Shown: positions 2,910 through 39,974 of the stretch, one piece after another
How the letters are laid out: every line of letters begins with the position of its first letter
How positions within the stretch are numbered: position 1 is the first letter of the stretch
Sequence record: MN850570.1
Strand: one strand, 5' to 3'
Length of the DNA: 40,770 bases
Origin: Escherichia phage mellemsur
The notes under the pieces: model-generated
Database searches by the model: none
The model's input: only the letters and a program-made list of their open reading frames with translations
Told to the model about the DNA's origin: nothing
Made by a program: the position numbers and the translations under genes

Positions 2910-3341
2910 AGTTATTTCTCCAGTTGTTGGCTATTTTCAGGTGGATAGTGAACCCATTGTGACGCGCCGTACAGTCTGCACTCGTTGGCATTGATTGGCT
3001 TGTCGGATTCACTACCCTGAAAAATCGCCCCGCCCATTTCGCGCCGTGGATATTGTCTGCATCCACTCTCAGGAGTCCTCCAGCAGTCCGGCTCACCGTT
3101 TCCAGCTTGCCTACCTACCCGCTTCACTCCGCGCCTTATAAGACGTTCGGGATTGTGCTGATACTGCGCTGCGTCTATCGCGCTTCTCCGTTCCCATCGC
3201 ACCGGGCGCTACCCCTATTGCCTTTCGGCGGTGCCCTCACCAGTTCCTAGCTGCGCCGGATACCCATGAGGCCGAGACACTACGTGGCCTGTTTACGTTC
3301 ACTCAGAGCAGGTTGTTTTGCAACCTTTCAACTCGGTGCTG

Positions 3342-3370
3342 ATTACATCACATCGTATTCAGCGTGTCAA
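3342..3370 (-). promoter_or_regulatory. sigma70-like early promoter (TTGACA-N17-TGTAAT on minus strand)
   Basis: plus-strand attaca at 3342-3347 and tgtcaa at 3365-3370 with 17-nt spacer. Confidence 0.45.
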
Positions 3371-3421
3371 CTACTTTTTACTTCTGACTGACTGGCTTGC
3401 TGCCCTGTCAATCTGGAGCGT

Positions 3422-3450
3422 ATTACAGCATACTCGTTTCATCCTGTCAA
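3422..3450 (-). promoter_or_regulatory. sigma70-like early promoter (TTGACA-N17-TGTAAT on minus strand)
   Basis: plus-strand attaca 3422-3427 and tgtcaa 3445-3450, 17-nt spacer. Confidence 0.45.
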
Positions 3451-3558
3451 CCGTTTTATTCAGCGCCCGTTCTGAGATGAATAATCCGTACCAGTTTGCC
3501 TGCGTGTGTTTTAACGTCTTTATCAATGACTGTTTGGCTTGCTGGCTGACGTGGAAGC

Positions 3559-3587
3559 ATTACAGCATAGTGAGCTTGCCTTGTCAA
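3559..3587 (-). promoter_or_regulatory. sigma70-like early promoter (TTGACA-N17-TGTAAT on minus strand)
   Basis: plus-strand attaca 3559-3564 and tgtcaa 3582-3587, 17-nt spacer. Confidence 0.45.
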
Positions 3588-3661
3588 TACACTCCAGATT
3601 GTTAAAGAGCAGTGCTACCGTTCAATCTTGTCTACTGGGCTAGTGCCTTTCGACGTGATGA

Positions 3662-3691
3662 ATTACAGCACATAACCAAAACAGTTTGCAA
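3662..3691 (-). promoter_or_regulatory. sigma70-like early promoter (TTGCAA-N18-TGTAAT on minus strand)
   Basis: plus-strand attaca 3662-3667 and ttgcaa 3686-3691, 18-nt spacer. Confidence 0.4.
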
Positions 3692-3712
3692 GTATTATTT
3701 TCAAGAAAAGTG

Positions 3713-3731
3713 ATAAGTTACTGTAATCATT
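3713..3731. repeat. direct repeat copy 1 (ataagttactgtaatcatt) in AT-rich spacer
   Basis: 19/19 identity with 3792-3810; flanks also similar (gagatta / agataatta). Confidence 0.6.
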
Positions 3732-3791
3732 GAGATTAAAGTTTGATTGGATAATCACAACACTGGATAGAATACCGTTATCAGATAGGTC

Positions 3792-3810
3792 ATAAGTTAC
3801 TGTAATCATT
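3792..3810. repeat. direct repeat copy 2 (ataagttactgtaatcatt)
   Basis: identical to 3713-3731, about 79 bp apart. Confidence 0.6.
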
Positions 3811-3818
3811 AGATAATT

Positions 3819-3850
3819 ATGAAAGTGTCTATAGTGATATAGTATCGCTA
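3819..3850 (-). promoter_or_regulatory. conserved element copy B (minus strand reads tagcgatactatatcactatagacactttcat)
   Basis: 21-nt core tatcactatagacactttcat identical to 25712-25732 (there on plus strand); contains CACTATAGA, the core shared with T7/SP6-type promoters. Confidence 0.4.
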
Positions 3851-4320
3851 GATACGCAGAGCGAGCGCGGCGCAGCCGAAACAAGCGAGCGCCGAACGGA
3901 TGACGGATGGCAGACCGTAGGACTGACAGACGGCAGACAGTGAAGGCAGTAGGACAGTAACAGCAGGTAGCAGAGCATGACGCGCAGAGCTGGCAGGCGC
4001 AGACAGTAGACCGGCACACCACACAGCAGGACGGCAGCACCACGCCGCACACCGCTACACACCAGCACCACACAGCACCACGAAAAGAGACAGATACCCG
4101 CACGACCGAGCGCAGCACGCAGCACCGCACAGCCAGCGCAGAGCGTCCCCATAGGACAGCACCGCACAGCACAGCCAGCAGGACAGCGCACAGCACGTCA
4201 CACGGCAGACGATGAAACGCGACACGCACGAGCTATACCGCACGCAGGCAATCCTCTTGACGCGCCGCGCAGCGCACGCGAGCAAATATCGCGCACGTCG
4301 CGAGGCTAATCCGCGCACAC
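3851..4320. repeat. T-depleted (plus strand) degenerate short-repeat tract, presumed genome terminus / terminal-repeat region
   Basis: Manual count roughly 29 T in about 470 nt; recurring CAGCAC/CACAGCA/GACAGC units; lies between last late gene and early promoters. Confidence 0.65.
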
Positions 4321-4384
4321 GTCATGGGGGTACGCGCGGTCATTTGGGTCGAGGGAGGGCCAAGCATAAACGTGCAATTTTCAA

Positions 4385-4406
4385 GCCGGGGTATTGCACC
4401 CACGGC
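4385..4406 (-). terminator. possible hairpin downstream of endolysin gene
   Basis: imperfect GC stem gccgggg...ccacggc; A/U-rich but not U-run tail; weak. Confidence 0.2.
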
Positions 4407-4435
4407 CTGTTCATTGCCTCAGCTTTTGGATACCC

Positions 4436-4972
4436 CTACAGCGTCGCACAGTAAGCGCTACAGCGTTTTGCACGAGCAACCAAGGCATCCCTATAGCGAA
4501 CCACTGTCGGGGCTGTAGAAGCCTTTAGGAACGCAATACGAAGGTCACAGATGGCTGCTGCTGCGGAGTGAGGTTCCAGACGTTTGGCTGCTGCCACGGT
4601 AGCAGGGCCAATAACCCCGTCTTGTGCAACGCCGCATACCCGCTGTAGAGCTTTCGCCGCACGGGAGACACCGGAGTTGACACCGTAGTCAAACACGGCA
4701 CATGCAATCGCAGGGTGAAGCTCGTCACCTCGGATGGGGGCGTAGTAATCCCGTCGATAGATTGCTTCGGCTTGTGCTTTGGTGAGGTCTTTGATAGGCA
4801 CGCAAATAGTACCGCCAAGCCCAGTAGGGACACCACAAGCTCGGCCATCCAGTTTGCCATCACGAGCGTCGCTAATTCCATGATTCGTTTCCCCTCCGGT
4901 ATCGCCGGGCAGCTTGGTGTAACCACCTTCTGCCAGCCCGGTGAACCGCATACAGATTTCAAAGTTAGTCAT
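4436..4972 (-). CDS. endolysin, GH108-type N-acetylmuramidase with C-terminal peptidoglycan-binding-like domain
   Basis: N-terminal EGGY...D-x-GG-x-T-x-x-GI motif typical of GH108; no signal/SAR sequence; ATGA overlap with upstream gene. Confidence 0.75.
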   Translation of the reverse strand: MTNFEICMRFTGLAEGGYTKLPGDTGGETNHGISDARDGKLDGRACGVPTGLGGTICVPIKDLTKAQAEAIYRRDYYAPIRGDELHPAIACAVFDYGVNSGVSRAAKALQRVCGVAQDGVIGPATVAAAKRLEPHSAAAAICDLRIAFLKASTAPTVVRYRDALVARAKRCSAYCATL

Positions 4973-6709: not shown

Positions 6710-8469
6710 TATTTGATTCTCCGTCGCGTGCCGCGCACAGGTTTATGGCTACGCCACTTCGAGTCATCGTAACCCATTGGGTTGGCAAGGAACTCGCGTG
6801 CGGCAGCCGTCTCGCGCTTGGCAGCTTCTTCATGTTCGTCCTGCTGTAGCACCTCAGCGTGCAGGTACACGGCAGCAGATAGGGTTTCGATACGGTCATC
6901 GTGTGGGATGGATTGACGGTCTTGTGTCAGGTTCTGGAGCTGCCAGAACAGGCTGAACTCTCGACCACCGTTGTTCATCCCGCGACACAGCCGCAGGTCT
7001 TCTTCAACAACGCACCAGTGTACGACGACACGGTGACGCTGCATGATTGGGCCAAGGCGGTTGATGATACGCACCTCTTTCTGGCCGGACGAGTACACGC
7101 CTTCACAGCCAATGGCCAAGCTCTGGCGCTTAATCTCACCTCGGTACATGTTGGTCACGGTGCCGTGGCCCATGTTATCCTCAATGACCAGCCGTTTAAC
7201 CCCGGTTTCAGCGAGCCACTCTACCGCCGCCTTGATGTTTTCCTCCGTCTGGCCGCCGTGGTAGACGTGCATACCGATGACGTGGATAAACGGGCCGACA
7301 GAAGCGGTGGCAATGATAACTGATTCGTCCGACCCACCACCAGCAGGGTCAAGAAACGCCGAGGTATTTTCGAATGGTACATAAGTGTCCGAGAAATCAG
7401 CAGCCAAGAATAGCTGAGCACGAGCCAGTGGGAAATCCAGTGGCAGCTCGGCGGCATGGCGCGGGTGGTTCGACCAATGCAGAACCTCCGGCGCGGACTG
7501 CGTTGAGCCGTGGAAGAAGATTAAGTCTTTGAGATGTAACGTTTGTTTGAGCGCATCCGACAGCGACGTGTCCAGCATGAACTGCAACTGGAAGCCTGCC
7601 TGCTGGTAGTCTCGTTCGTTCTGCAACTGCTTTTCTTCGGAGTAGCGTTGCGGGTCAGTCTGTGCGCCACGGTTCCCAAGGATACCGTGTCCGGTACGCA
7701 GCTCAGGGTGGCCTTCCATCTTCTGCTTAATCCACGGGGCCAGACAGCCGCCGTAGCGTTCTTCTTCCTCAACCGTTGGGAAACGACCGGGCCAGATGCG
7801 AACGTCGAAGCCACGCTGTGGGAGCGTGTTGTAGATGGAGTCTTGAGTCTGTGGCGTGCCGAGGTACAGAATCTCTGCACCATCGTTGGCGATAGCCGCG
7901 AACTCTTTGGTCAGGGTGTTGATACGGGCGCGGTTGGCAGGAGAGCTACCGTTACTGGTAGTCTCCACGTCATCGGCAATCAACAGCGATACGTGGTTCC
8001 CCTGTAGCTGGCCGAAGATACCGACCGCTTTTACAGAGGGCTGTTTGTCAGGGATACGGAACGCGTGATGCACGTCGAAGCCGTCAGTAAATGACGTACG
8101 TGCGCCAGCGCGAGTCTCAGGCTTGAGCCATTCCAGACGTTCCCACTGCATGATAGCCGACACGATAGCGTGCGACAGCGTACCAGCATAGTCGTCGGAA
8201 CCGGACACAAGCAGGACAGTGGCGTTCGGCATCTGCACAAATTCGTACAGAGCGCGAGCAATACCGATGGTGGACTTTGCCTCACCACGCTGCGCCATGA
8301 CGCACTTGTTCTTGAGCGTCCTGTCGGCCATGTAGCGGCCAATGTCGAGCTGCATTTCAGTGAGGTCAAAGCCCAGCCATGCGAAGTAGTCATGCAGGAA
8401 CAGCGGGAAGTTGTTCTCGTAGTGGGCGCGAACGATTCCTGCCATCACCATGCGGCGTTGTAAATCCAT
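6709..8469 (-). CDS. terminase large subunit
   Basis: 586 aa (same length class as T7 gp19); position after tailspike and small ORF as in T7-like late operon. Confidence 0.75.
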   Translation of the reverse strand: MDLQRRMVMAGIVRAHYENNFPLFLHDYFAWLGFDLTEMQLDIGRYMADRTLKNKCVMAQRGEAKSTIGIARALYEFVQMPNATVLLVSGSDDYAGTLSHAIVSAIMQWERLEWLKPETRAGARTSFTDGFDVHHAFRIPDKQPSVKAVGIFGQLQGNHVSLLIADDVETTSNGSSPANRARINTLTKEFAAIANDGAEILYLGTPQTQDSIYNTLPQRGFDVRIWPGRFPTVEEEERYGGCLAPWIKQKMEGHPELRTGHGILGNRGAQTDPQRYSEEKQLQNERDYQQAGFQLQFMLDTSLSDALKQTLHLKDLIFFHGSTQSAPEVLHWSNHPRHAAELPLDFPLARAQLFLAADFSDTYVPFENTSAFLDPAGGGSDESVIIATASVGPFIHVIGMHVYHGGQTEENIKAAVEWLAETGVKRLVIEDNMGHGTVTNMYRGEIKRQSLAIGCEGVYSSGQKEVRIINRLGPIMQRHRVVVHWCVVEEDLRLCRGMNNGGREFSLFWQLQNLTQDRQSIPHDDRIETLSAAVYLHAEVLQQDEHEEAAKRETAAAREFLANPMGYDDSKWRSHKPVRGTRRRIK

Positions 8470-25044: not shown

Positions 25045-25463
25045 TACGGTTTCTCCAAATCAATGAAGCGGTACTCCTGAACGTAAGGCCGCACCATATG
25101 GGAGTAACCGCACCAACGCACACCCGCTGAACGGGCCACGTCTTTGAGTACACGGAGGATGGCACGCATCACTCCACGGTTTCTGTACTGGGGCCAGACG
25201 TATGAGGCCATAACGACCACCATCTCGCCCACATGAATATCGAATAATCTGCCGATGTGAGCGACAGCCATGAGGCTGCCGTCATCGTCAGTGATGTAAA
25301 CGTCAACGCAACCGGAGGCGGTGGCCTCATACATGCTGTCAACAATCACATCGGGAGATAGGTCTGACCATGGCCGCTCAGCTTGAATACCTTCGGCCAC
25401 AGCACGGCGAATGTCGAGTGGCATCGTCGTGTGTGATGTATTTCCCATAGTAGACACTTTCAT
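25044..25463 (-). CDS. hypothetical protein, possible GNAT-like acetyltransferase
   Basis: 139 aa; segment WPQYRNRGVMRAIL resembles GNAT motif A; weak. Confidence 0.35.
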   Translation of the reverse strand: MKVSTMGNTSHTTMPLDIRRAVAEGIQAERPWSDLSPDVIVDSMYEATASGCVDVYITDDDGSLMAVAHIGRLFDIHVGEMVVVMASYVWPQYRNRGVMRAILRVLKDVARSAGVRWCGYSHMVRPYVQEYRFIDLEKP

Positions 25464-25464
25464 T

Positions 25465-25650
25465 TCAAATCACTCTTTCTCTGATGAAATCCAGAACGTC
25501 TTGCTTACCAGCCTCTCTGTTAATCAGAGGTAGGTTAGTGTCGGGAGTGACTGTCTTACCTACCTGAGACCATGTACCGAAGTGCTTCTCCAGTAGAGCT
25601 AACTGTGCTTTAGTGAACTGAACTCTTTCAAGTGGAGATTCTTTACCCAT
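25465..25650 (-). CDS. hypothetical small protein (start at MGKESPLERV)
   Basis: AAGAGAGGA Shine-Dalgarno before internal ATG; first gene after RNAP. Confidence 0.45.
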   Translation of the reverse strand: MGKESPLERVQFTKAQLALLEKHFGTWSQVGKTVTPDTNLPLINREAGKQDVLDFIRERVI

Positions 25651-25699: not shown

Positions 25700-25732
25700 T
25701 AGCGTGATATCTATCACTATAGACACTTTCAT
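25700..25732 (+). promoter_or_regulatory. conserved element copy A (plus strand tagcgtgatatctatcactatagacactttcat)
   Basis: Near-identical to reverse complement of 3819-3850; core CACTATAGA as in T7/SP6 promoters; flanked by 12-bp palindrome gctaccggtagc (25692-25703) and GC hairpin (25676-25692). Confidence 0.4.
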
Positions 25733-25760
25733 TTAAGTCAATGATACATATCACTATTTA

Positions 25761-28193
25761 TCAGCAGAAAAACTTGCTTGATTGTTTCACAAGCTGGATA
25801 TCCAGATTGCCCCGTTCGGGTGCAACAGCATTGTATCGTACAGCAAGTTGTTGAATTGGGTCATGTTGCTCATACATCTGTACGAACTTTTCACGAATGA
25901 CCTTGTGGAGTAACCCGGCATGTGCAGCCGCCACCCCGAACGAATCGTGGATGGACACCATGTACACCCCGTTATTCCACATCTCCCACAACACCTTCAT
26001 CATGTGGCTAGCATCCATGGCGTGTACGAAATTCGGAGCAATCGCAGCGGCACACTTCCTGCCGTCCGGCTTGTCCAGATACTCGCGCAGCTTAATGCTG
26101 TGGATACCCATGAGGTTGATGTTGTTGAGCATCGTCTCCTTGCTGGCTTGATACAGGTTAACCACCCGCAACCCCGATGGTGCAATGATTTCCACGTACT
26201 CGCCGTTGGCTGCCGCCTCAACAGCGATAGCCTGCAACCATGCCATCAGCTCTGCCGCCTTCGGCACAACGCGAGGGATTGCATTCCACATAAACTCTGC
26301 GATGAACTGCGCACACTCCAGCAGGCTCTTGCCGTCCGGCAGCTTGACCCGGTTCTCTCGCAGGTACAGGCAGTAGTAGTCCACCATGCCGTGCCGGGTT
26401 GCCCCGTACACGTAGGTCATCACTGGCTTCTTAGCCATCGCCCGGACAATACCGATTGAAACAAGCCACGTACCCATCTGCGTCGGTGACTGCGCCTCAC
26501 TATCTTCAAGAGCCTGCATCGCCGCTGCTGCCGTCTTGAGATATATGTCTGCTTTTCTTCCCACGCTATTGATAAGATTGACAGCAGCACCGCCAACTTC
26601 ATCTCGTAGCATCGCACTGAGGTGCTGTAATCCTGAACAGGTAGCGTCCCATTGCGTAACCACTCGGCAGGGATAAGTCTCAGGACTTCCTGAGTCGATA
26701 GCGCGAATGAGTTCAACAGAGGCAGCCCACGCGCTGATAGGGCTATCGGCTTCTGACCAGAACGAATCAAATGCCTCTGGAAGACGGCACGCCTCACGTA
26801 GTCGGGGGAGTGTCTTGTCCGTCCACGCCGCCCGGTCGTCGAAGTCTGTTGCGTCGTAGCCGAAGCAATTCGCAACATGAACCTTGAGCCAGAACAGCCC
26901 CTCAGTTCCGAGAGCCACTGGTTCCGCAAGCTCAAGCAGCGCTCGCACTGCGTCGATAGACTGAGGGTTAAGGGTCGAAGAATAATAAATTCGGCCCCGC
27001 GTATCGGCGTAAGTCGGGAGATAAATCCTATCGTACTGTGCATACCTGTCTGCCTCTTTGACTGCACCATTCAACGCCAGCATCTGCGACGTGAACTTAC
27101 GCAACTCATTGTAATACAAGCGAGTCTTCACCTTGTACTCATGAGCTTCGGCACCCATCTGCTGCTGCATCTCTGGTGGGAACTTGCTGATGTACTGTGC
27201 AAAGCTCACACCAGCGGGGATGGTGAACGGAAGTGTAGGCTCACGGGGTGGCACAGGCAGCCCCATAACGCCTGTACGGTTCGTTCGCAGGAACTCCAGT
27301 ACCATTGGGTTAACTCGGTACGGAACGCTGCTGAGCATCATACACGGCTCTATAACGGGGGTCGGGTCAACGTTCAATGCACGATACCCTTTGTGGTTCA
27401 TGCGGCTCATGACCCGGTACATCGCCGCCTGCCCATCGGAATGCCACATACCGCTGCGACCGTTCGGGGCAATCTGCTTCGGTGGGATAATCAGCGGTGG
27501 GCAGCACATGCCATCAGCACGCGGCATGTCCAGCCAGTCGTTCATCGTAGCCAGCACATCTTCGTGCAGTGCGAAGTGTGCCGTACCGCGCTGGCGCTGG
27601 TTGCCGCCGGCGCGAATCGTGGACACCAGACCAGTTGGCTCGACGCACTTCATCATCAGCTTGCCAATGGTAATCAGCGCACGCTGCGGCAGCACATCAA
27701 TCTCTACCCCAACGTTCGCCGCCGACGCACGCGCTTTGTTGTAGACGTGGTTCGCTGACTTCGAGCGAGACTTCTTCACGTCCTGCTTAACGCGCTCCAT
27801 GTACGCCGCCTGCTGTGGCCCGGTCTGCTTCGCCCGGAGGTACACTACCTCAGCCATCAGTGCCTTGCCCATGCTCTTGAGCAGACTCAGTACCGCCTGC
27901 TCCGACGCAGCACCGGACACCGCCATGCTCAGTGCGAGAGAGGCACACGCTTTGGTGCCAATCTCACGCATGTACGTCCGGTACTGCGCACCATACCCAC
28001 GGGTCGTTTCGCTCAAGGTTTCTTGCATCGCAGCTTCGACCAGAGGATAAGCCTCAACCATCATACGCTGGAGCAACGGCACCGACCCGGCGCGGCCACT
28101 GGCCATCGCCTCTTTGATATTATCCAGCCAGCCCTCGCGGTGTCTGGCTCGCGCTTCTTCTTCAAGTCGAATCTGCTCTGCAAGTAAATCCAC
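25761..28193 (-). CDS. single-subunit DNA-dependent RNA polymerase (T7/phiKMV-type)
   Basis: 810 aa; DATCSGLQHLSAML (T7 RNAP motif A region) and SIHDSFG (motif C region). Confidence 0.9.
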   Translation of the reverse strand: MDLLAEQIRLEEEARARHREGWLDNIKEAMASGRAGSVPLLQRMMVEAYPLVEAAMQETLSETTRGYGAQYRTYMREIGTKACASLALSMAVSGAASEQAVLSLLKSMGKALMAEVVYLRAKQTGPQQAAYMERVKQDVKKSRSKSANHVYNKARASAANVGVEIDVLPQRALITIGKLMMKCVEPTGLVSTIRAGGNQRQRGTAHFALHEDVLATMNDWLDMPRADGMCCPPLIIPPKQIAPNGRSGMWHSDGQAAMYRVMSRMNHKGYRALNVDPTPVIEPCMMLSSVPYRVNPMVLEFLRTNRTGVMGLPVPPREPTLPFTIPAGVSFAQYISKFPPEMQQQMGAEAHEYKVKTRLYYNELRKFTSQMLALNGAVKEADRYAQYDRIYLPTYADTRGRIYYSSTLNPQSIDAVRALLELAEPVALGTEGLFWLKVHVANCFGYDATDFDDRAAWTDKTLPRLREACRLPEAFDSFWSEADSPISAWAASVELIRAIDSGSPETYPCRVVTQWDATCSGLQHLSAMLRDEVGGAAVNLINSVGRKADIYLKTAAAAMQALEDSEAQSPTQMGTWLVSIGIVRAMAKKPVMTYVYGATRHGMVDYYCLYLRENRVKLPDGKSLLECAQFIAEFMWNAIPRVVPKAAELMAWLQAIAVEAAANGEYVEIIAPSGLRVVNLYQASKETMLNNINLMGIHSIKLREYLDKPDGRKCAAAIAPNFVHAMDASHMMKVLWEMWNNGVYMVSIHDSFGVAAAHAGLLHKVIREKFVQMYEQHDPIQQLAVRYNAVAPERGNLDIQLVKQSSKFFC

Positions 28194-39902: not shown

Positions 39903-39923
39903 AGTTCACCTCACGTTGGCCAA

Positions 39924-39938
39924 TATAGACACCTTCAT
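39924..39938 (+). promoter_or_regulatory. partial third copy of conserved element (plus tatagacaccttcat), preceded by hairpin 39940-39964
   Basis: 14/15 match to core of elements A/B; located about 21 nt upstream (gene direction) of ATG at 39902; 7-bp stem atgcctg/caggcat. Confidence 0.3.
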
Positions 39939-39974
39939 AATGCCTGCTAAATAATAACAGGCATGAGTAGATGA

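Follow-up and report, generated by a model that had tools for sequence, protein, structure and literature searches.

Conserved repeat boxes beside a predicted antisense phage promoter near the left genome end of Escherichia phage mellemsur

The non-coding region near the predicted left genome end of Escherichia phage mellemsur (sequence record MN850570.1, whose 40,770 nucleotides are called the window here) carries two copies of a 19-bp sequence, ATAAGTTACTGTAATCATT, which we term the E boxes, E1 and E2. Sequence comparison indicates that these boxes are selected, position-constrained cis-elements. The second of them lies directly upstream of a motif that we identify with high confidence, by comparison of sequences, as a predicted promoter of the phage RNA polymerase (RNAP) firing on the + strand toward the terminal repeat, the Bonnellvirus counterpart of promoter P001 of phage LUZ19. 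An earlier note made from the letters of the window had picked out the repeats and missed this adjacent antisense promoter, 8 bp after copy 2. More tentatively, with a probability that we would place a little short of even, the boxes may be sequence-specific protein-binding sites of a terminal promoter module with a role in replication or maturation in the manner of T7.

The two boxes and the promoter motif are arranged as follows.

3713-3731, + strand: box E1 (copy 1), exact match; 21 bp from the -35 hexamer of the outermost early promoter, Pc, and 87 bp before the antisense promoter motif
3792-3810, + strand: box E2 (copy 2), exact match; ends 8 bp before the promoter motif, covering about -42 to -24 with +1 set at 3834
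3816-3839, + strand: predicted antisense phage-RNAP promoter ATTATGAAAGTGTCTATAGTGATA, leftward in the conventional orientation; +1 predicted, by analogy with T7, at the G of position 3834

The 19-mer was found exactly, on the + strand, at both positions at which it had been reported, and no further match with up to 3 mismatches was present on either strand of the window. In 100 dinucleotide-preserving shuffles it was matched 0 times. Of the similar flanks that had been attributed to the repeats, a 9-nt leftward extension was found, giving 28 nt at 89% identity (3704-3731 and 3783-3810). A weight matrix built from all E variants, with the approximate consensus RTAAGT-N3/4-TG-NN-ATCAWT, scored only E1 and E2 above the shuffle level in the window. 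The exact 19-mer was present in IMG/VR in one Bonnellvirus-like contig, next to five chance matches in unrelated low-GC phages. E1 and E2 flank a spacer of ~125 bp and 27% GC that separates divergent promoters. The local AT-richness noted earlier was borne out, as positions 3694-3843 have 27% GC and are the 150 bp of lowest stability in the whole 40.8-kb sequence, with a nearest-neighbour dG of -1.13 against a genome mean of -1.48 (sd 0.056, thus ~6 sd off).

Conservation in related genomes, which the earlier note had proposed as a check, was then assessed and supports a function of the boxes: E1 is 97% conserved and the spacing is constant across the genus. Over 14 genomes, the mean pairwise identity of E1 is 0.971, compared to 0.73-0.82 in its flanks, and in the alignment E1 shows no fixed difference between the two main clades though the inter-box spacer diverges widely. 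E1 is recognisable in J8-65, smaasur, Lidtsur and LIMEzero. The block around E2 (3776-3870) has a conservation of 91-100%; the 3' half of E2 occurs in two forms, TGTAATCATT or TGATATCAAT, independently of E1. The gap between E2 and the promoter is 8 bp in 15 of 15 phage genomes and also in the aligned metagenome contigs. From the end of E1 to the promoter motif there are 87 bp in the window, J8-65, Lidtsur and smaasur and 88 bp in the clade whose boxes are 80 bp apart, the E1-to-E2 spacing being 79 bp (as in the window) or 80 bp. The sole sizeable indel, of 11 bp or one helical turn, lies between E1 and the early promoter. Retrieval of loci by way of the S-adenosylmethionine (SAM) lyase gene gave only copies of already known genomes.

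The promoter motif belongs to a family within the genome. The 21-mer ATGAAAGTGTCTATAGTGATA at 3819-3839, 8 bp past copy 2, has one other exact copy, on the minus strand at 25732-25712. A looser search with the core TGAAAG-NNN-CT (the family core being TGAAAG-NNN-CTAT) revealed sites at the early/middle boundary, after the RNAP gene, at the start codon of a gp36-like gene and, on the opposite strand, in the left-end non-coding region. These four sites are syntenic in each of the four Bonnellvirus genomes in which all four were found, and Lidtsur has three. The other members in the window and the polymerase gene are listed below.

39918-39941, - strand: promoter site 1, at the early/middle boundary, after a hairpin; syntenic with an annotated LIMEzero promoter at 7294
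25712-25735, - strand: promoter site 2 (late), directly after the RNAP gene, with a degenerate E-like sequence upstream
25443-25466, - strand: promoter site 3, overlapping the start codon of the gp36-like gene, the next but one after the RNAP gene
25761-28193, - strand: gene of a single-subunit T7-like RNA polymerase, 810 aa, E = 1e-57 to T7 RNAP structures

One triplet of the motif is variable; it is concerted across the sites within a genome and different between genomes (11 genomes with TGT, TGA, CTA or TAA). The window, altidsur and LF82-23 have TGT; ROV85, RZ4 and glasur have TGA; Kc261 and usur have CTA; and J8-65, smaasur and Lidtsur have TAA or TAT. The RNAP has a hotspot, varying in step with the triplet, in the segment that aligns to the specificity loop of T7 (residues 743-758 there). 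At site 3, the first residues of the gp36-like protein shift with the triplet (MKVS, MKVT or MKAT), and this change of residues along with the motif indicates that selection at the DNA level overrides the coding sequence. The sequences of E1 and E2, for their part, are unchanged across TGT-, TGA-, CTA-, CAT- and TAA-type genomes and chromosomal islands (the latter are described below). As they do not co-vary with the promoter type, the boxes are a separate recognition element that is not read by the specificity loop of the polymerase. The possibility that they are extra phage promoters was considered and rejected for the same reason, no co-variation with the polymerase type being seen.

In LIMEzero, a phage of another genus, all four positions are occupied by a related motif, TATGAAGGCAAGCACTAAGG, the copy at nt 656 being inverted, and its record labels two of the four as 'putative phage specific promoter'. 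An E-like box, GTAAGTGTATGTATTGATT, precedes its antisense promoter by 9 bp, and a weaker one stands beside its first host promoter. In Kc261 and usur, the 26 nt upstream of the RNAP-adjacent late promoter match the E2 context at 19 of 26 positions by manual count.

In LUZ19, ONT-cappable-seq revealed four phage-specific promoters, of which two follow the RNAP gene, one lies in the structural region and one is P001, an antisense promoter near the left end that is conserved in 15 Phikmvvirus species (PMC10914365, Putzeys et al. 2024). The motif at 3816-3839 shares with P001 an orientation opposite to all genes, sister promoters right after the RNAP gene, a U-poor predicted transcript, and a location between the terminal repeat with its skewed tract and the host early promoters (in LUZ19 the repeat covers 1-472, P001 lies at ~748 and the host promoters start from 913). 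In contrast, the LUZ19 region is not AT-rich and has no analogous direct repeats at the left end, its motif sequence is unrelated, and P001 was mapped from transcripts whereas the Bonnellvirus promoter is predicted from sequence alone. In a literature search, neither a description of Bonnellvirus promoters or terminal elements nor a Bonnellvirus transcriptome was found.

The position of the module in the genome was deduced by comparison with relatives. Region 3300-4400 is 74-94% identical to Bonnellvirus phages (Autographiviridae: J8-65, Lidtsur, megetsur and others), and by its sequence the stretch is that of a Bonnellvirus, a T7-like podophage. All long open reading frames (ORFs) are on the minus strand; the window is the reverse complement of the conventional genome orientation and is circularly permuted. 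Its non-coding segment 3203-4435 spans the genome ends. The J8-65 record annotates a 259-bp direct terminal repeat (nt 1-259 and 40723-40981), and J8-65 nt 1-294 align to window 4352-4073 with J8-65 nt 1 at 4352, which is the predicted physical left end. The 19-mers are thus 540-640 bp away from it, in keeping with the earlier placement of the repeats near a phage terminus. The elements between the promoter and the end are as follows.

3834-3975, + strand: conserved initially transcribed region, purine-rich with G>C; 82-98% identity between phages and islands
3861-4230, + strand: T-poor terminal tract (U-poor RNA), 4.6% T compared to 22.9% genome-wide
4083-4095 (read 4095-4083), - strand: class II pause-like signal ATCTGTCTCTTTT, at the inner edge of the predicted terminal repeat
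about 4105-4352, no strand: predicted direct terminal repeat, from J8-65 homology; a single collapsed copy in the assembly
4348-4391, no strand: conserved block over the predicted left-end cut site CCTCCC/TCGAC (the slash marks the cut), kept in J8-65, Lidtsur and LIMEzero

The block at 4348-4391 is likely the best candidate for a terminase recognition or cleavage signal. ATCTGTCTCTTTT resembles the class II pause signal of the T7 concatemer junction, which we take to be ATCTGTT; its J8-65 counterpart, ATCTATCTTTTTT, stands ~10 nt beyond the annotated end of the repeat, and equivalents are also present in Lidtsur and in the islands (ATCTTTCTTTTTCG in the latter). The T depletion of the tract is the same in J8-65, LIMEzero and LUZ19, so these genome ends seem to share, as a conserved trait, an antisense transcript poor in U or a top strand poor in A. 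Of the five longest T-free runs in the genome, 3861-4230 contains four, and the fifth begins just ahead, at 3854. The predicted transcript is less structured than shuffles (fold z-score +1.28), so that a structured non-coding RNA is unlikely; a search of Rfam with both strands of 3100-4500 gave no match. An ORF of 188 aa on the minus strand (3663-4229) covers the tract together with the two 19-mers. The records of HHU8 and Kc261 label it 'hypothetical protein', and forsur and Lidtsur have similar ORFs over the tract only. The ORF was rejected as a spurious coding sequence because the A-poor strand offers few stops and because the 1-bp and 11-bp clade indels in the AT-rich part break its frame. 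GC skew is +0.16 in 3501-4000; its sign flips near 3.5-4 kb and 23.5-25 kb, coinciding with the early/middle versus late gene blocks and therefore confounded by gene class.

On the other side of the boxes lie the host-type early promoters and the first gene.

3662-3690, - strand: early promoter Pc, the outermost, TTGCAA-18-TGTAAT, read from the sequence, with a UP-like A/T block at 3691-3703 upstream
3559-3586, - strand: early promoter TTGACA-17-TGTAAT, read from the sequence, with A/T-rich UP-like DNA upstream
3422-3449, - strand: early promoter TTGACA-17-TGTAAT, read from the sequence, with A/T-rich UP-like DNA upstream
2520-2909, - strand: first gene, encoding SAM lyase (Pfam)

All three promoters have TGTAAT as their -10 hexamer, which is unusual in that its second base, normally invariant, is a G; TG(C) precedes it. 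Conservation of the hexamers reaches 98-100% at two promoters and about 80% at the third, Pc. A consensus scan of 3100-4500 for sigma-70 promoters and terminators reported no promoter and one weak terminator-like site; the early promoters escaped it because of the G at the second base of the -10 hexamer. The same architecture and TGTAAT hexamer are labelled as host promoters in the LIMEzero record. An untranslated leader of ~500 nt (2910-3415, minus strand; 92% identity) separates the innermost early promoter from the SAM lyase gene.

Sites resembling that of integration host factor (IHF) were noticed beside E1. E1 is directly followed by AATCAAATATTTA, a perfect match to the IHF consensus WATCAANNNNTTR, in clade B, J8-65, smaasur and Lidtsur; in relatives the IHF-like site is at -82/-83 from the promoter motif, and LIMEzero has another at -61. 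In the clade of the window the site at 3736-3748 (minus strand) has one mismatch, AATCAAACTTTAA.

The E2-promoter junction is also found outside phage genomes. A metagenome scan with this junction gave 11 relevant contigs, one of which (L048) comes from the left end of an ordinary Bonnellvirus whose promoter is of the TAA type. The remaining ten (L039-L042, L045-L047, L050, L051 and L054) derive from chromosomal islands and share sequence with the window from the first base of E2 on, over ~110-270 nt, mostly to ~3996, with 82-98% identity. They carry a single E box, E1 being absent, and a different but equally AT-rich flank; the only other piece shared with the window is the 4348-4391 block, present in five of the ten. 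Their promoter triplets are TGT, TGA, CTA and a new one, CAT. When complete E. coli genomes were searched, the stretch was present once per chromosome in 52 of 5,426 (~1%), and among the matches listed every alignment begins at window position 3791 or 3792. The island copy consists of E2, the promoter and ~180 nt of the tract. The islands are ~15 kb long and located at tRNA-Leu(CAA), or at tRNA-Gly in L050. The element in the chromosome of E. coli OkiPb01685 (L056) measures ~15.7 kb (L056 9644-25423) and lies between copies of a 25-bp repeat that corresponds to the 3' end of tRNA-Leu. Besides an integrase and a T7-like capsid protein, which has 56% amino acid identity to the major capsid protein of the phage, it has genes for a resolvase, a DEAD-box helicase, an AbiJ-like protein, an HNH endonuclease and a YafO toxin; genes for an RNAP, a terminase or a portal are missing.

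A second promoter-like motif, TTTTGAAAGTGACTATTAAGG, is present in the islands (L056 19803, minus strand; L039 6802, plus; L040 10922, plus; L041 863, minus). It lies ~225 bp from the first motif on the opposite strand, points toward the helicase operon, has no E box and is always of the TGA type.

Combined, the conservation, the fixed spacing and the re-use by islands argue that the boxes are functional cis-elements of the genome-end region, and the shared stretch suggests that the segment from E2 to the repeat edge is a cis-acting terminal unit. The islands form one family, so that the boundary at E2 is suggestive and does not amount to independent evidence. As far as a literature search found, neither the conserved boxes upstream nor the re-use of them by E. 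coli islands has been described, while the antisense left-end promoter of phiKMV-like phages is already known.

How the module might operate can be proposed by analogy with T7, and it is here that we infer protein binding by the boxes and an origin or maturation role. The 19-mers would be copies of one cis-element in the control region of the antisense promoter, E2 abutting the promoter and E1 lying beside the UP-like element of the first host-type early promoter. A protein encoded by the phage or the host would bind the boxes, organise the readily melting spacer and determine how strongly it drives the terminal promoter, which would transcribe the G-rich, U-poor tract into the terminal repeat. 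E box, promoter and conserved tract might then act together as a cis replication/maturation element of the genome end. In T7, every origin requires a T7 promoter (PMC8373140), and PMC13236587, citing Chung & Hinkle 1990, states that ori, pac and the terminal repeat suffice for plasmid replication and packaging. The module shares with the T7 origins (phi1.1A/B as primary; phiOR, for example, as secondary) a phage-RNAP promoter and AT-rich meltable DNA, and in both systems one paralogous promoter module directly follows the RNAP gene and another is near the genome end. We know of no sequence-specific repeated boxes at T7 origins. The set found in islands (promoter module, pause-like signal, repeat-edge block) is comparable to the ori, pac and terminal repeat of T7 phagemids as given in PMC13236587, those being engineered plasmids whereas the islands are natural, integrative and known as sequences.

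Several observations weigh against this proposal. In T7 origins the AT-rich DNA is downstream of the promoter; here it is upstream (3694-3815) and the transcript would enter a GC-rich, T-poor (in RNA, U-poor) tract toward the nearby end, so that a fork or transcript begun here runs toward the left end and is of little use on a linear monomer. The antisense promoter of LUZ19 has neither an AT-rich block nor comparable repeats. E2 is not recognisable in J8-65, smaasur and Lidtsur, where the intervening sequence is unalignable, and its 3' half is divergent in 5 of 15 phage genomes and 6 of 11 metagenome contigs; since several genomes have the divergent form, that part would not be essential. The boundary at E2 in the islands may be a single historical recombination endpoint. 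Finally, no candidate for an E-box binding protein came from the early proteins or from known consensus sequences: a Pfam search of ten early-region ORFs recognised the SAM lyase only and no DNA-binding domain, and comparison by eye of the E box with the LexA, CRP, Fis, TyrR, OmpR and H-NS consensus, which can serve as a lead only, gave no convincing match.

The main rival is a purely transcriptional switch, in which the boxes control the divergent host early and antisense promoters and have no role in replication or packaging; we regard it as rather unlikely, though a serious contender, and it is not separable computationally from an origin or maturation role. The antisense transcript would then merely insulate the early genes from late read-through across the concatemer junction, a hypothesis that has been published for P001 of LUZ19 (PMC10914365). 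The invariant 8-bp distance to the promoter fits a switch, as does the indel toward the early promoter, whose 11 bp preserve the helical phase. So do the E-like sequence at the matching position upstream of the late promoter in Kc261 and usur and the E box found ~55-95 bp upstream of a host-type promoter in the islands and LIMEzero. It accounts less well for the ~180 bp that islands keep at 82-98% identity, far beyond a promoter and one operator, and for the second promoter-like motif of islands, which lacks an E box; the Pfam search of the ten early-region ORFs also found no regulator gene.

A packaging signal, with the boxes recognised at the concatemer junction by the small terminase subunit or another maturation factor, is improbable. 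The boxes lie within ~300 bp of the terminal repeat (inner edge), the islands, which would be packaged by a helper if they are satellites, retain E2 together with the pause-like signal and the repeat-edge block, and pausing of T7 RNAP at the concatemer junction is known to initiate packaging (PMC3276506). Yet the islands do without E1, and J8-65, smaasur and Lidtsur package their DNA though they have no recognisable E2. E2 is common to phages and islands but ~300 bp from the repeat edge; the block at 4348-4391, which spans the predicted cut site and is conserved across genera, fits a terminase site better.

Still less probable is that the boxes are a relic, that is, decayed duplicates of an ancestral promoter kept through low divergence. 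The E-box core AAGTTACTGTAAT (window 3715-3727) equals the J8-65-type promoter core AAGTAACTGTAGT at 11 of 13 positions, the antisense promoter itself scores weakly on the E-box weight matrix, and by their sequence the boxes may go back to promoters of an older specificity that were duplicated. A relic would not be expected to be far better conserved than the adjoining DNA, as E1 is, to keep a fixed spacing across the genus, or to persist as E-like boxes in another genus and in islands.

An origin of the iteron/DnaA type, where initiator repeats and a DnaA box recruit DnaA or an initiator to melt the AT-rich DNA, is very improbable and already largely refuted. Like the iteron and DNA unwinding element origins of plasmids, lambda and oriC, the region has direct repeats beside the least stable DNA, and in relatives a possible IHF site next to E1. 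However, the iteron-like sites suggested earlier come down to two widely spaced copies, 79 bp apart, with no others above the shuffle level of the weight matrix. There is no adjoining initiator gene; the region is non-coding and the early proteins have no DNA-binding matches. The DnaA-box-like TTATCCAA that had been placed between the copies is indeed present, as TTGGATAA at 3747-3754 and hence on the minus strand, and agrees with 7 of 9 positions of the consensus TTATNCACA; in most relatives TTGGATAA is replaced by TTAGATAA or TTGAATAG, and the element was rejected because it is not conserved. T7-like phages, moreover, initiate replication with their own RNAP (PMC8373140). The proposal of the earlier note that the repeats serve protein binding, an origin or packaging is thus retained as far as functional cis-elements of the genome end are concerned, and dropped for the DnaA box and the iteron array.

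It is just as improbable that the boxes are leftward host sigma-70 promoters, for although CTGTAAT occurs in them as in the three early -10 regions and its alignment places -35-like hexamers (TTTCAA, TTATCA) at the 17-bp spacing of the early promoters, no sigma-70 site was reported by the scan, the clade with the 11-bp insertion has lost the -35-like hexamer of E1, TGTAAT of E2 becomes TGATAT in 5 of 15 phage genomes and several islands, and the LIMEzero boxes lack TGTAAT.

Under the proposal of a terminal replication/maturation module, the islands could be explained as well. The module of E box, promoter and tract would be a cis handle for Bonnellvirus replication and maturation, and the islands of E. 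coli and its relatives, which include defence genes, would be undescribed satellites of lytic T7-like phages, expressed, replicated and packaged by a helper through the module, the pause signal and the repeat edge. We consider this explanation of the islands speculative and on the doubtful side. Packaging would then probably occur in small capsids made of the island's own capsid protein, and the triplets would track the polymerase specificities of the helpers. A literature search for satellites of T7-like phages found nothing.

If the predicted promoters are genuine, the genus gains a promoter map and a natural series of orthogonal promoter/polymerase pairs (TGT, TGA, CTA, CAT and TAA), and the antisense left-end promoter of Pseudomonas phiKMV-like phages extends to enterobacterial relatives, where it comes with upstream boxes that can be mutated. 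If the boxes do take part in replication or maturation, they would provide a compact candidate origin/maturation module for phagemid engineering in the style of T7. The E. coli islands that borrow the module make the existence of satellites of strictly lytic T7-like phages directly testable.

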